Source: a virus
Taxonomy: Duplodnaviria > Heunggongvirae > Uroviricota > Caudoviricetes
Direction: 5' to 3' (one strand)
Length of the DNA stretch: 27,070 bases
IMG/VR virus record: IMGVR_UViG_2651869694_000009
Span: 1 to 27,070 of that record
Shown: one piece after another, positions 1,223 through 6,426 of the stretch
How positions within the stretch are numbered: position 1 is the stretch's first letter
How the letters are laid out: each line of letters starts with the position of its first letter
Translations under genes and position numbers: made by a program
The notes under the pieces: model-generated
Databases searched by the model: none
Seen by the model: only the letters and a program-made list of their open reading frames with translations
Told to the model about the DNA's origin: nothing

Positions 1223-1239
1223 TTTTGTGGAGAAAGTTG

Positions 1240-1617
1240 ATGCGTGATATTCAAATGGTTCTGGATCGTTGGGGAGCATGGGCGGCGAGTGATAGTTCAG
1301 GAGTAGACTATTCTCCTATAGCTGCTGGGTTTAAAGGGCTTCTTCCCTATACAAGCAAAACACGTCAGGCATGTTCAGATAGTGATGCATTAATTATTGA
1401 AGGTTGTCTTGCTCGTCTAAGGCAAAAAAGGCCGGACGAACATTCGCTTCTTGTTGCCCATTACCTATACGGTATCTCTAAAAGAAAGCTCGCCAAGGCT
1501 CGTAAAAAGGATGAGAAACTAATACGCATTGAGATACAGATGGCTGAGGGGTTTATTGATGGCTGCCTATCGATGCTGGAAATTAGTCTAGAGATGGACC
1601 CCGAAATTAAAGATTGA
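1240..1617 (+). CDS. Q: Late-gene antitermination protein Q (QuuD / phage-82 Q-like family)
   Basis: Translation MRDIQMVLDRWGAWAA...IAAGFKGL... closely resembles E. coli DLP12 QuuD as I remember it. The ATG at 1240 follows GGAGAAAG. The ORF track starts at an upstream TTG (1225). Confidence 0.85.
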   Translation: MRDIQMVLDRWGAWAASDSSGVDYSPIAAGFKGLLPYTSKTRQACSDSDALIIEGCLARLRQKRPDEHSLLVAHYLYGISKRKLAKARKKDEKLIRIEIQMAEGFIDGCLSMLEISLEMDPEIKD

Positions 1618-1622
1618 TTATT

Positions 1623-1648
1623 GAAGCCCGATTACTCGGGCTTTTGTT
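1623..1648 (+). terminator. Intrinsic terminator immediately after Q
   Basis: Hairpin AGCCCG (1625-1630) / CGGGCT (1637-1642) with a 6-nt loop, followed by TTTTGTT. It overlaps the stop codon of the convergent minus-strand gene. Confidence 0.6.
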
Positions 1649-2651
1649 CCACATCTCGAACATAGAGAATTACTGCTGACTTAATGTCACCATCGACGTG
1701 TTTTGCGTTAATGCTCAAATGTACAGGCTTTCTTTCCCACTCAGCTCGCTGCAATGCTTCTTTGTTTCCGGATTCATCAAGGAAAACATCCTGAACTACG
1801 CAGGTTAGACGTTGGTCGGTATCTACGCGTCGGACCTTAACTTTGAAACTCTCTGGGTCAGTATTATTGACTTCTTCAATTCGGTAAATACCATCAATCC
1901 TCATTTCTGATGAACGTCTACGAGCATTCGTAACCAACTCTTTCGCCATTTCAGAATCAATAGTAACGCCATCAATTTGAGCGTTATCTGAACGCACAAA
2001 GGATTTGACCATTTGGGTTTTAGCGTCATACGACATACGGTCCATGTTATCGAGAAGTGGTTTTTCCGCAATCATTTCTGAAATAACCCGCAGGCGTTTA
2101 GTTTCTTGCTCGCTCATGATCTGCATAGTCCGGAGATGTTCTTTCTCTCCATCCTTAGCAATTTCTGCAAGGCGAATATCTTTACGGTTGTCCAAGAACC
2201 GTTTAAATACTGTTACTCCGCCCCAGATGACTGCTGCGCCGAGAACAGTAAACATGATCTCAGTTGCGTTCATTTTACCAACAAGTTCCTGTGTGAGTTT
2301 GGTTAAAAAGCCATCAATGTTGATTTCTACTATTGAAGAACCCTGTTCTACCGTAACTTCTATTTCTAGGGCATCAAGTTCTTCTTTGGTCAGTTTGCGG
2401 ACGTCAGGGACACCGTACTTGGCAAGGGCATATGATTTGTTGATTTGAGCTTGCATTTCAACAAATCCCTTCATAACTGAAGGTGTTAGCGATCTGTTGA
2501 ATTTTTCACCGGTTAATCTGATGGTAAGGTTTGGCCATCCGTTGAAACTTAAACTGTCAGGTAAACCATAACCATCAAGATAGCTTTCAAGCAAATCGAA
2601 GGCTTGCTGCTCAGATTCAATGTCTACATGAATCTCATCAAACTTATCCAA
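1632..2651 (-). CDS. Hypothetical single-pass membrane protein (339 aa), moron gene; candidate superinfection-exclusion or abortive-infection protein
   Basis: Long ORF in AT-rich DNA (about 33% G+C in the 60-nt lines I hand-counted). One hydrophobic segment IMFTVLGAAVIWGGVTVF at about residues 131-149, followed by KRFLDNRKDIR. The start is TTG at 2651-2649, preceded by GAGGA with a 7-nt spacer. Opposite orientation to the phage backbone. Confidence 0.7.
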   Translation of the reverse strand: MDKFDEIHVDIESEQQAFDLLESYLDGYGLPDSLSFNGWPNLTIRLTGEKFNRSLTPSVMKGFVEMQAQINKSYALAKYGVPDVRKLTKEELDALEIEVTVEQGSSIVEINIDGFLTKLTQELVGKMNATEIMFTVLGAAVIWGGVTVFKRFLDNRKDIRLAEIAKDGEKEHLRTMQIMSEQETKRLRVISEMIAEKPLLDNMDRMSYDAKTQMVKSFVRSDNAQIDGVTIDSEMAKELVTNARRRSSEMRIDGIYRIEEVNNTDPESFKVKVRRVDTDQRLTCVVQDVFLDESGNKEALQRAEWERKPVHLSINAKHVDGDIKSAVILYVRDVEQKPE

Positions 2652-2825
2652 AAATATGTCCTCATTCTAAGCCAACTGTCACCGTGAGGTTTGGCAACGC
2701 CTGCTTTATTTTTCGTTTTAAGCTGTGTGGCAAAAAAATAATGGAAAAACAGATAAAAATCACTAACGCGGTCCGCATTTTCTAGATTACTGTGTTAAGA
2801 GTGGTTACTTCGCCACACAACTTAA

Positions 2826-2848
2826 ACCCGCCGCTGAGCGGTTTTTTT
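2826..2848 (+). terminator. Weak candidate intrinsic terminator or attenuator
   Basis: Short GC stem CCGC (2831-2834) / GCGG (2838-2841) with a 3-nt loop, then a run of seven T (2842-2848). The stem is short, so this is tentative. Confidence 0.35.
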
Positions 2849-2946
2849 GTACCTGTAAACTTGGTGCAGCACAGTAAACACGCTGGTGGTCGTGAATACT
2901 GACTTTTTATCTTGCTGGCTTTTTAGACAAGAGTTATTGGTATGTC

Positions 2947-3174
2947 ATGTTAACCAGAAGGGAAAAAGACATGCTAAAACAGCAAGATATGACAGAAACC
3001 GCCGCCGCAGTCCTTCATTTCTTACCTGCTGACAAGTGGGTAACGCCACGCATGATGACGAGAACTACCGGAGTAAGCGAAGCCCGGTGCCAGTTAATAC
3101 TGACTCAGTTAGTTCTGGCGGGTCTGGCGAAGGATAACGGCGGGTACGGGAATAAATTCAGACGCTGCCAGTAA
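2947..3174 (+). CDS. Small winged-helix DNA-binding protein (PapI/FaeA-like pattern), putative regulator
   Basis: 75-aa ORF; the real start may be an internal Met. The segment AVLHFLPADKWVTPRMMTRTTGVSEARCQLILTQLVLAGLAKDNGG has the helix-turn-helix plus wing pattern of PapI-type regulators. Assignment is by pattern only. Confidence 0.4.
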   Translation: MLTRREKDMLKQQDMTETAAAVLHFLPADKWVTPRMMTRTTGVSEARCQLILTQLVLAGLAKDNGGYGNKFRRCQ

Positions 3175-3324: not shown

Positions 3325-4377
3325 ATGAAAAATACTGTAAAAATAAACAGTGTTGATTTAATCAACGCTGATTGCCTGCATTTTATTCAGTCCCTGCCTG
3401 ATGATTCCATTGACCTGATTGTTACCGATCCGCCTTACTTCAAAGTGAAACCTAACGGTTGGGACAATCAGTGGAAAGGGGACGAAGATTACCTTAAGTG
3501 GCTGGACCACTGTCTGGCCCAGTTCTGGCGGGTGTTAAAACCTGCCGGAAGCCTTTACCTGTTCTGTGGGCATCGCCTGGCATCTGATATTGAGATCATG
3601 ATGCGTGAACGTTTCAACGTGCTTAACCATATCATCTGGGCGAAGCCGTCCGGACGTTGGAATGGGTGTAATAAAGAAAGTCTGCGCGCATATTTTCCTG
3701 CCACAGAGCGCGTTCTGTTTGCTGAACATTACCAGGGGCCATATCGCGGCAAAAGTGACGACTATGCGGCAAAAGAAAGGGAACTCAAACAGCACATAAT
3801 GGCACCGCTGATATCGTATTTCAGGGATGCTCGTGCCGAACTGGGTATAACGGCAAAACAAATTGCCGAAGCCACAGGTAAGAAAAATATGGTTTCCCAC
3901 TGGTTTGGTGCCAGTCAGTGGCAGTTGCCGAATGAGGCTGACTATCGGAAGTTACAGGCACTGTTTTCCCGTATAGCGGCAGAGAAGTTTCAGGAACAAC
4001 AACTGGAACAACCACACCACCAGCTGGTGGCATCTTATGATTCACTGAATCGCAAATATTCTGAATTGCTGGATGAGTTTAAATCTCTCCGGCGCTATTT
4101 CTCCGTATCAGTCTCCGTGCCTTATACCGATGTCTGGACGCATAAGCCCGTTCAGTTCTACCCGGGTAAACATCCGTGCGAGAAACCGGCGGATATGCTC
4201 CGGCAAATAATCAATGCCAGTAGTCGACCTGGTGATCTGGTTGCTGATTTCTTTATGGGATCCGGTTCCACAATAAAAGCAGCAATGGCGCTGGGGCGTC
4301 GGGCGTTAGGTGTTGAACTTGAGTCAGAGCGGTTTAATCAGACGGTGAAAGAGGTAAGTGAACTGGTGGGGAAATAA
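3325..4377 (+). CDS. Orphan DNA methyltransferase, beta-class (N6-adenine or N4-cytosine), PF01555-like
   Basis: Catalytic motif IV DPPY near the N-terminus (LIVTDPPYF) and AdoMet-binding motif I near the C-terminus (DFFMGSGST). That order defines beta-class amino-methyltransferases. No restriction endonuclease partner is visible. Confidence 0.85.
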   Translation: MKNTVKINSVDLINADCLHFIQSLPDDSIDLIVTDPPYFKVKPNGWDNQWKGDEDYLKWLDHCLAQFWRVLKPAGSLYLFCGHRLASDIEIMMRERFNVLNHIIWAKPSGRWNGCNKESLRAYFPATERVLFAEHYQGPYRGKSDDYAAKERELKQHIMAPLISYFRDARAELGITAKQIAEATGKKNMVSHWFGASQWQLPNEADYRKLQALFSRIAAEKFQEQQLEQPHHQLVASYDSLNRKYSELLDEFKSLRRYFSVSVSVPYTDVWTHKPVQFYPGKHPCEKPADMLRQIINASSRPGDLVADFFMGSGSTIKAAMALGRRALGVELESERFNQTVKEVSELVGK

Positions 4378-5799: not shown

Positions 5800-6426
5800 T
5801 CAGTTGTCAAATGAATATACGTTAAAGGTATATGTCGACATAATTTCACCAAGTACCTCAATACATACACTTTTTTTATGAAAATTACTGGGAAATGAAC
5901 TTAGCTCCTCAAGACATTGCACATAAGTGCTGATATCACTTGCATCACGTTCAAGGAATTTCACTTGACCAAAAGAAGGAGTTTTAATCTTGGTTCTTTG
6001 CTGGATTATATGGATAAAGTGTGTAGTTGGTGAAACTATTACTCTTGAAATATCGGAAATGATGTCTTCTTGAACTTGCCGATAAAGTAAATCCTTTGGG
6101 TAATGGTGTTTTATCTCGATGGTTGCAACATTGCCATTATGTTCAGACGTTAATATCGACTGGTTATAAAGTGATATGTCAACAGCGCCGATACCGAGTT
6201 TTGGATGCTCACTTAAAGCAGTTAGTGTGCTGATTTGATTGAGTATAACAACTAACTCATCACGTATTTGTGTTTCATGTTTGCGATTGTAGAAGTAGCC
6301 ATTCAGTTCATTTAACTTTTTATGCATCCTATCGTGACTAATTGCTTCGATCAGTAAATCCTGAATCATACTTTTCTCTAGGTAATCCGAACGGTTGTAA
6401 GTGACAGTATTGTGCTGGCATGTCAT
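5800..6426 (-). CDS. Hypothetical protein (208 aa), downstream gene of an AT-rich moron operon; possible PD-(D/E)xK-type nuclease
   Basis: Long ORF in DNA of about 32-37% G+C, where stop codons are frequent and long chance ORFs are unlikely. Contains GIGAVDISLY ... VATIEIKHH (D83, E104, K106), compatible with a PD-(D/E)xK core. Start uncertain because no clear SD precedes ATG 6426. Confidence 0.6.
   Translation of the reverse strand: MTCQHNTVTYNRSDYLEKSMIQDLLIEAISHDRMHKKLNELNGYFYNRKHETQIRDELVVILNQISTLTALSEHPKLGIGAVDISLYNQSILTSEHNGNVATIEIKHHYPKDLLYRQVQEDIISDISRVIVSPTTHFIHIIQQRTKIKTPSFGQVKFLERDASDISTYVQCLEELSSFPSNFHKKSVCIEVLGEIMSTYTFNVYSFDN

Follow-up and report, generated by a model that had tools for sequence, protein, structure and literature searches.

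A candidate anti-phage membrane protein carried as a moron beside the Q antiterminator gene of a lambdoid Escherichia coli prophage

What is the function of a gene that lies between the Q antiterminator gene and the lysis genes of a lambdoid prophage, on the strand opposite to all of the neighboring phage genes? This question is raised by positions 1618–2946 of the IMG/VR virus record IMGVR_UViG_2651869694_000009, which was analyzed as a single stretch of 27,070 nucleotides (the window) and whose source is a lambdoid Escherichia coli prophage. The gene encodes a 339-amino-acid protein, and an earlier description made from the letters of the DNA (the sequence-only reading) had taken it to be a moron, that is, an accessory gene, for a membrane-anchored protein that might act in superinfection exclusion or abortive infection. 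Based on the position of the gene, the neighborhoods in which its relatives are found, the conservation of its start codon and a published prediction, we lean, with reserve, toward the reading that it specifies an inner-membrane anti-phage protein expressed in the lysogen.

The coding sequence, stop codon included, occupies 1632–2651 on the minus strand in the list of open reading frames (ORFs). It begins with a TTG codon (2651–2649) that is preceded, at a spacing of 7 nucleotides, by the Shine-Dalgarno sequence GAGGA (2663–2659), the whole translation start thus spanning 2649–2663 of the minus strand, as had been described. The translation is identical to RefSeq entry WP_000357056.1 ("hypothetical protein"), and RefSeq annotates the same coding sequence in an E. 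coli APEC O78 prophage that matches 1618–2946 with 100% DNA identity. A survey of 5,426 complete E. coli genomes found the full region in 87 of them (1.6%). That the reading frame is a gene is certain, because it has 101 full-length homologues, with identities down to 26%, in Enterobacterales, Pseudomonas, Acinetobacter and Burkholderiales, and because an exhaustive profile search recovers 1,511 cluster representatives (clusters at 50% identity), 588 of them below an E-value of 1e-30. The base composition is less extreme than first stated. The figure of about 33% G+C came from two hand-counted 60-nucleotide lines, each of which is exactly 33.3% G+C but unrepresentative of the region; the ORF is 42.0% G+C (38.5% at third codon positions), the whole of 1618–2946 is 41.8% and the window is 52.7%, such that the region exceeds its surroundings in AT content by about 10 points and not by 20.

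The weak start codon is a feature of the family and not only of this copy. The GAGG Shine-Dalgarno sequence and the TTG are kept in the E. coli, Enterobacter and Pantoea versions, TTG or GTG starts are also found in the Salmonella, Moraxella, Pseudomonas and Halomonas clades, and most of the distinct gene versions, among those listed, begin at one of these two codons, with ATG starts in a minority that includes Morganella, Acinetobacter and phage phi458. Because a rare start codon has been kept over such large distances, the pattern suggests selection for low dosage, as would be expected if too much of the product were harmful.

The gene is convergent to Q, with the two stop codons 15 nucleotides apart, and it is followed on the plus strand by a gene for a 75-amino-acid protein (PHROG 331), an N6/N4 DNA methyltransferase gene and the holin, lysozyme and Rz genes; its placement between Q and the lysis genes was therefore described correctly. 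Q itself (1225–1617, plus strand) is identified by PF06530 (E 2.1e-52), by the RefSeq annotation and by 49% identity to QuuD of DLP12. Phages with the same Q and the same right flank carry other cargo in this slot: two unrelated minus-strand ORFs of 146 and 312 amino acids (the latter with DUF6731) in phage cdtI (1927–3315 of locus L012), and one unrelated minus-strand ORF of 147 amino acids in phage PhiR40_1 (1991–2437 of locus L116). None of this cargo has a match in PADLOC or, beyond DUF6731 and where tested, in Pfam. Alignment places the variable cassette at about 1600–2763, and the gene is swapped as a unit between Q and a conserved downstream region. Replaceable between conserved flanks, equipped with its own terminator hairpin and distinct in G+C content (0.42 compared with 0.527), the gene is well supported as a self-contained accessory cassette, or moron.

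The same comparison bears on whether the protein might serve the phage's own cycle, as a membrane-associated helper of lysis timing, of DNA entry or exit, or of lysogeny control. The gene is often near lysis genes, and its architecture and N-terminal domain are strongly conserved, as might be expected of such a helper. However, the closely related phages cdtI, PhiR40_1 and mEp460, with the same flanks, lack the gene, which must therefore be dispensable; the full region is present in only 87 of the 1,411 E. coli genomes that match part of it; the copy in the window runs against the strand of all neighboring phage genes; and the position of the gene differs completely between phage groups. Co-orientation with late or structural genes in Mu-like phages, and with tail genes in prophages of Pseudomonas aeruginosa and of a Providencia-like type, speaks for a role of this kind, which we nonetheless consider the least probable of the explanations weighed here.

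The best-known occupant of this slot suggests another possibility. In DLP12, the porin gene nmpC lies on the opposite strand between quuD and essD, in the same slot and orientation as the gene studied here, convergent to a PF06530 Q and ahead of the holin gene, and the analogy with nmpC drawn by the sequence-only reading is therefore right. NmpC itself is an outer-membrane porin, unrelated in sequence and fold and probably also in role. Nonetheless, the presence of a porin gene in the DLP12 slot, together with the iss gene that the same type of prophage carries after its lysis genes in APEC O78, invites the idea of a lysogenic-conversion factor, an envelope protein that alters host physiology, stress tolerance or virulence in the manner of Bor/Iss, Lom or NmpC. 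We judge this idea improbable. Neither a signal peptide nor a lipobox nor homology to porins is seen in the protein, and its relatives are spread over hosts and habitats (enterics, Pseudomonas, Acinetobacter, Halomonas, Moraxella, Pasteurella and Burkholderiaceae) in a way that misfits host-specific virulence.

Searches of family and structure libraries place the protein in a large family without a characterized member. It matches PHROG 6191, annotated as of unknown function, over its full length (E 1.6e-152; residues 3–337 against positions 2–337 of a 338-position profile). Nearly all of the best 150 of the 1,511 matches in the exhaustive search are 320–350 amino acids long, and the family is almost entirely phage-borne. 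In Pfam, only a sub-threshold match to FNIII-A_GpJ was found (18.6 bits against a cut-off of 27), in NCBIfam only noise on the hydrophobic helix, and in PADLOC-DB v2.0.0 (5,027 models) no family up to an E-value of 0.1; the homologues from phi458, Mcat17, Pmp14 and locus L032 have no match in PADLOC-DB either. Searches of Protein Data Bank (PDB) sequences with the protein and with the family profile gave E-values of 0.12 or worse. The earlier statement that no family could be recognized is thus borne out, and no homology to a porin, a lipoprotein or other known cargo was found: there is no signal sequence, no Pfam, NCBIfam or PDB sequence match, and the predicted structure combines an alpha/beta domain with an oligonucleotide/oligosaccharide-binding fold (OB-fold) and is not a beta-barrel porin. 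Accordingly, the idea of a moron-borne defense function survives this comparison.

Two domains of unknown function came up in these searches. Pfam DUF7947 was rejected: 8 of 38 members match it weakly (best E 0.0018, 17.5 bits against a gathering threshold of 27) and over the OB-fold part only, and the window protein does not match it at all. A Foldseek search of BFVD returned a phage protein annotated with DUF6575 at an E-value of 3.8e-6 over 331 columns, but with a TM-score of 0.31 and 5% identity, and no Pfam or PADLOC sequence match links the window protein to this domain. DUF6575 has been named as a new defense domain (Vassallo et al. 2022), and we treat the structural match as a lead only.

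An AlphaFold2 model built from 38 homologues (mean pLDDT 83.9, pTM 0.65) divides the protein into an alpha/beta N-terminal domain, a hydrophobic glycine-rich helix, a helical linker and a C-terminal OB-fold. The N-terminal domain (residues 1–128, of which the model shows 1–125 as the alpha/beta domain; 2268–2651, minus strand) has the order beta-alpha-beta-beta-alpha-alpha-beta-beta-alpha, is acidic and is the most conserved part of the family; specifically, among the 237 members compared, conservation is highest in its core (residues 36–110) and its net charge is negative in 96%. A search for structural matches to it found none. When this domain was used alone in a profile search for other domain combinations, only gene fragments were recovered, from which it follows that the architecture is invariant. 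Cysteines are nearly absent across the same 237 members.

The hydrophobic glycine-rich helix (IMFTVLGAAVIWGGVTVF; residues 131–149; 2205–2261, minus strand) is defined by the Kyte-Doolittle and Hessa scales and by the model, in which it forms part of a long helix (129–163) that is kinked at G144-G145. On the Kyte-Doolittle scale, the 19-residue window of highest hydrophobicity begins at residue 131 with a mean of 1.77 and there is no second peak, in agreement with the single helix proposed at about this position in the sequence-only reading. The segment is hydrophobic in 93% of the 237 members (family mean Kyte-Doolittle value 1.67). Summed on the Hessa scale, it scores about +0.4 kcal/mol in the window protein, and the family median is +0.5. 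Hence, the helix is probably a single transmembrane segment, of marginal hydrophobicity. It is followed by a basic juxtamembrane stretch (KRFLDNRKDIR) and then by the helical linker and a small hairpin (residues 150–245; 1917–2204, minus strand), modeled as helices at 146–163, 167–174, 181–196 and 198–218 and strands at 223–232.

In the model, the C-terminal domain (residues 246–335; 1647–1916, minus strand) adopts an OB-fold, a closed barrel of five beta-strands in which two helices separate strand 3 from strand 4. As had been noted, charged residues abound in the C-terminal part, with 33 lysines and arginines and 36 aspartates and glutamates in residues 155–339; for the OB-fold domain, the net charge averages −1.1, with negative values in 67% of the 237 members. 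Its best structural matches are periplasmic or secreted proteins, namely metal binders of the SilF/CusF type and the B subunits of AB5 toxins, which would suit a conversion factor of the envelope. The acidic N-terminus (MDKFDEIHVDIESEQQ), read directly, shows no signal peptide or lipobox. Within 15 residues of the helix, lysines and arginines average 3.9 on the C-terminal side and 2.05 on the N-terminal side, with the C-terminal side higher in 76% of the 237 members. Given the positive-inside rule and the acidic N-terminal domain, these sequence features favor a single-pass topology with the N-terminus outside and the C-terminus inside.

It is informative to examine where relatives of the gene reside in other genomes. 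For this purpose, 113 loci were classified with probe proteins, by looking up exact proteins and by scanning species-representative genomes and IMG/VR once each. Nearly half (55 of the 113, with 26 distinct proteins that are all at least ~68% identical to the query) resemble the window in that the gene is convergent to a PF06530 Q and 6–24 nucleotides from its stop codon; the neighbor on the far side is not constant. At a further 32 loci (15 distinct proteins), the gene lies downstream of a cI-like repressor gene on the same strand, at a distance of 26–574 nucleotides in most loci and up to ~1.8 kb in an Acinetobacter cargo cluster. Carriers of this arrangement include Salmonella (Typhi among them), Morganella, Pseudomonas, Acinetobacter, Moraxella phage Mcat17 and E. 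coli phage phi458; the repressor of Mcat17 was confirmed as a Peptidase_S24 protein, and for phi458 hhalign gave 98%.

The slot directly downstream of cI on the same strand is the position of rexAB in lambda, and many relatives occupy exactly this place. RexB is a membrane protein thought to collapse the membrane potential. Homology to the Rex proteins was rejected (hhalign probability 0.07% for RexA and 0.12% for RexB), there is one gene where Rex has two and one helix where RexB has four, and the copy in the window is at Q, not at cI.

Other relatives lie in phage modules of other kinds: some are flanked by tail tube or chaperone genes and the tape measure gene or, in P. aeruginosa, by tail genes I and J, and some sit in the early/late or head modules of Mu-like phages. 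The slots in tail modules are of the kind that holds the exclusion moron gp15 of HK97, and they raise the possibility that the protein acts as a superinfection-exclusion factor at entry. It might, for instance, attach to the incoming tape measure or ejection proteins, or to a component of a host inner-membrane channel, and so block injection of the genome while the cell survives. A location in the membrane and an N-terminal domain that is highly conserved and possibly periplasmic would suit the binding of a conserved host entry component. There is also a precedent in SNIPE, a membrane-bound nuclease (DUF4041 and GIY-YIG) that acts at genome injection and with tape measure proteins (PMC13190303). 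The window protein would share with SNIPE the design of a constitutively membrane-bound single-protein defense with a helical middle and the use of the inner membrane as the site of phage recognition (PMC13190303); SNIPE, however, ends in a nuclease, whereas the window protein has no recognizable catalytic domain and no PADLOC match. Overall, we regard an entry block as unlikely, though a serious contender. Known entry-blocking proteins are mostly small and are not conserved across genera, whereas this family keeps a three-domain architecture of 335 amino acids from Moraxella to E. coli; the weak start codon kept throughout the family suggests a product that is harmful in excess; and the copy in the window and most relatives are located outside tail modules. 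As for HK97 gp15 itself, the likeness is that of an inner-membrane moron among tail genes, one clade of the family being placed between tail tube or chaperone genes and tape measure; gp15 is a small protein, and the window copy is not in the tail module.

Two observations concern the neighbors of relatives in these structural modules. In the slot between tail chaperone and tape measure genes, a family member adjoins a gene for a putative lipoprotein of 136 amino acids (MKKIIIASVVAFFAFSLSGC…; locus L105, 6161–6571, and relatives L106–L112), which is a second moron of that slot. In a Mu-like prophage of Vreelandella maris (locus L033, 3126–4352), the gene directly upstream of the moron slot encodes a Mu F-like head morphogenesis protein with a C-terminal PBECR2 toxin-nuclease domain (E 3.6e-22).

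Further relatives are found in the company of defense genes. In Pasteurella phage Pmp14, a full-length homologue (hhalign 99.4%) lies 85 nucleotides after a complete type VI retron; in a Burkholderiaceae genome, a relative is located inside a type I restriction-modification operon with an NTase/HEPN-like pair and a PD-(D/E)XK gene; in Acinetobacter, an HSDR_N protein is encoded in the same cargo cluster downstream of cI as the relative; and on a Halomonas chromosome, a relative is convergent to genes for a CoiA_N protein and a helicase. Such chromosomal copies, in restriction-modification or CoiA/helicase neighborhoods, also speak against a lysogenic-conversion factor. The Pmp14 retron (HTH_VI, E 2e-32; RT_VI, E 2e-88; locus L118, 1153–2407, near the right end of the genome) is annotated in the record only as a "transcriptional regulator" and a "polymerase". 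Across all these contexts there is no conserved partner gene, and the immediate neighbors differ in every context class. Since no neighbor is conserved, the gene works alone, as a single-gene unit.

A published prediction points in the same direction. In Table S10 of DefensePredictor (Science 2026, PMC13092281), WP_000357056.1 is listed as a "Putative novel defense gene" among "uncharacterized clusters", with a mean log-odds of 6.55 and a minimum of 4.51, compared with a stringent cut-off of 4, and without hits in HHpred or Foldseek. Neither the accession nor the PHROG number turned up in a full-text search of the literature, and the accession occurs only in the supplementary table. Because relatives occupy the rexAB slot and tail slots like that of HK97 gp15, because they are found beside a retron and in a restriction-modification operon, because the weak start codon is kept, and because DefensePredictor reached its prediction independently, the guess of superinfection exclusion or abortive infection made in the sequence-only reading has gained substantial circumstantial support.

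How might such a protein act? If it is a defense factor, the lysogen would make it at a low level, anchored in the inner membrane, and it would protect the cell, and hence the prophage, from other phages. The protein would span the membrane with its N-terminal domain outside and its linker and OB-fold inside, and, being a danger to the cell, would be kept at low copy number. When a phage infects, one of its components would be recognized by the OB-fold or the N-terminal domain; the glycine-rich helices could then pack into an oligomeric pore, the membrane potential would collapse and the infection would be aborted. This logic is likened to that of RexB, AbiP and PdpSau. Within the defense reading, we prefer such abortive infection through an oligomerizing glycine-rich helix to a block of genome entry, while holding it as a tentative proposal.

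The nearest match in working logic, by analogy, is with PdpSau of Staphylococcus aureus Sa2-type prophages and AbiP of Lactococcus, membrane-anchored abortive-infection proteins with an OB-like C-terminus, of which PdpSau depolarizes the membrane upon infection (PMC10127798). Like these, the window protein is a single-gene accessory protein encoded near lysis genes, with one membrane helix and a C-terminal domain resembling an OB-fold. In contrast, their helix is at the extreme N-terminus, whereas that of the window protein is central (131–149) and follows a 128-residue domain without a known fold; likewise, their C-terminus is basic and binds nucleic acids, whereas the OB-fold of the window protein is slightly acidic. 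The protein thus has neither the N-terminal anchor nor the basic C-terminal domain of the AbiP/PdpSau type, and it has no PADLOC match.

A more daring version of the proposal is that the family represents a new class of transmembrane phage sensor-effector. In such a protein, a periplasmic N-terminal domain might monitor the phage entry apparatus or a host entry component, and the glycine-rich helix might couple it to a cytoplasmic ring of OB-folds, resembling the B pentamer of AB5 toxins, that gates an oligomeric pore; the result would be a single-polypeptide, Rex-like "suicide channel" without a characterized relative, spread by phages across Proteobacteria. We regard this as a long shot.

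It is also necessary to consider what weighs against an anti-phage role and against the mechanism sketched above. No credible promoter was found upstream of the gene; the sole match of the consensus scan (9/12) overlaps the Shine-Dalgarno sequence, and an alignment of the Enterobacter and Pantoea upstream regions shows conserved blocks without a clear −35/−10 pair, so that what points to expression in the lysogen is only the placement of relatives beside cI. A topology with the N-terminus outside would mean, unusually, that a domain of 128 residues is exported with no signal peptide to direct it, and the helix is only marginally hydrophobic. The slight acidity of the OB-fold is unlike typical nucleic-acid-binding OB-folds, and the strong conservation of the N-terminal core is unlike the fast-evolving sensors of many defense proteins. 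Several phages carry the gene inside tail or head operons and in the same orientation, an arrangement that would also fit a part in the phage's own life cycle. The lack of any match among the PADLOC-DB models counts on the same side, as does the absence of WP_000357056.1 from DefensePredictor Tables S6, S7, S8 and S11, which cover tested units, plaque assays, validated proteins and strains; the overall validation rate of DefensePredictor was 45% (PMC13092281). Finally, oligomerization and pore formation are pure inference.

The family has no sequence relation to any characterized system and its N-terminal domain has no known fold, while its likely logic, by analogy, resembles that of known prophage exclusion proteins. 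Should the defense reading hold, a large family of about 1,500 clusters at 50% identity, one that is missing from Pfam, PADLOC and the record of solved structures, would join the anti-phage repertoire, and a function would be assigned to a gene that occurs in 1.6% of complete E. coli genomes and in widespread prophages of Salmonella, Klebsiella, Enterobacter, Pseudomonas and Acinetobacter. The unusual layout, in which a central helix stands between a novel domain and an OB-fold, might then show how phage sensing can be linked to the membrane in a manner not seen before. The protein is one of ~1,000 predicted E. coli candidates of DefensePredictor, from which it is distinguished by the size of the family, the invariant architecture and its presence, in many lineages of phages, at the slots where cargo is classically carried. 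Should defense not be its function, it is one more uncharacterized moron.

The borders of the cassette merit description in their own right. Between the convergent Q and moron genes is a G+C-rich hairpin of 9 bp (1623–1644, either strand) with a folding energy of −14.7 kcal/mol on the plus strand (z −3.5) and −13.8 kcal/mol on the minus strand (z −3.0); the stop codon of the moron sits within its loop, and the hairpin is probably a two-way terminator. On the other side of the gene is a cassette-specific 5′ region (2652–2763, minus strand) that is absent from phage cdtI despite the common flanks and partly conserved with Enterobacter. Regarding Q, the mechanical ORF starts at a TTG at 1225, and the RefSeq annotation and the QuuD alignment place the start at the methionine of residue 6 (MRDIQMVL…), which is probably the true start.

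Immediately beyond the cassette lies an element on the plus strand (2764–2829) that alignments show to be conserved among phages with this type of Q. This block of about 65 nucleotides (…ACGCGGTCCGCATTTT…TGTGTTAAGAGTGGTTACTTCGCCAC…) is also present in loci L012 (cdtI), L014 and L015 (Enterobacter) and L019 (Pantoea); in phages with another Q, the shared sequence starts only at about 2792 or 2825, and the element is missing from DLP12, whose Q is 49% identical. Its position indicates that it is probably the Q-dependent late promoter together with the Q-utilization site. If so, the cassette would be placed between Q and its target and would be outside the control of Q. In Stx phages, stx is carried on the strand of the late transcript. 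The comparison with the stx position made in the sequence-only reading is therefore loose, as the gene for the 339-amino-acid protein occupies the other strand, probably ahead of the Q-dependent promoter. The interval between Q and the late promoter looks like a cargo hotspot in lambdoid phages, one that could be mined for further systems. A motif at 2830–2849 was considered as a tR′ terminator and rejected, since it folds like shuffled sequence (z −0.3) and its stem is not kept in cdtI. In the conserved region between the cassette and the gene for the 75-amino-acid protein there is also a full-length, though sub-threshold, match to Rfam STnc130, an enterobacterial small RNA (2816–2952, minus strand; 25.2 bits against a gathering threshold of 55; E 0.51; model positions 1–135).

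Two further genes of the window are worth recording. The DNA methyltransferase gene (3325–4377, plus strand; PADLOC MTase_II, E 1.6e-151; Pfam N6_N4_Mtase) follows the gene for the PHROG 331 protein, with the presumed late promoter on one side and the holin gene on the other. No restriction enzyme is encoded in its vicinity, and its product appears to be an orphan methylase that is expressed late. Just past Rz is a second AT-rich ORF on the opposite strand (5800–6426, minus strand; G+C 0.36; 208 amino acids), which matches PHROG 12494, of unknown function (E 1e-126), and has no match in Pfam, NCBIfam or PADLOC. It occupies the slot of bor or iss in lambda, DLP12 and APEC O78 and is probably another moron.

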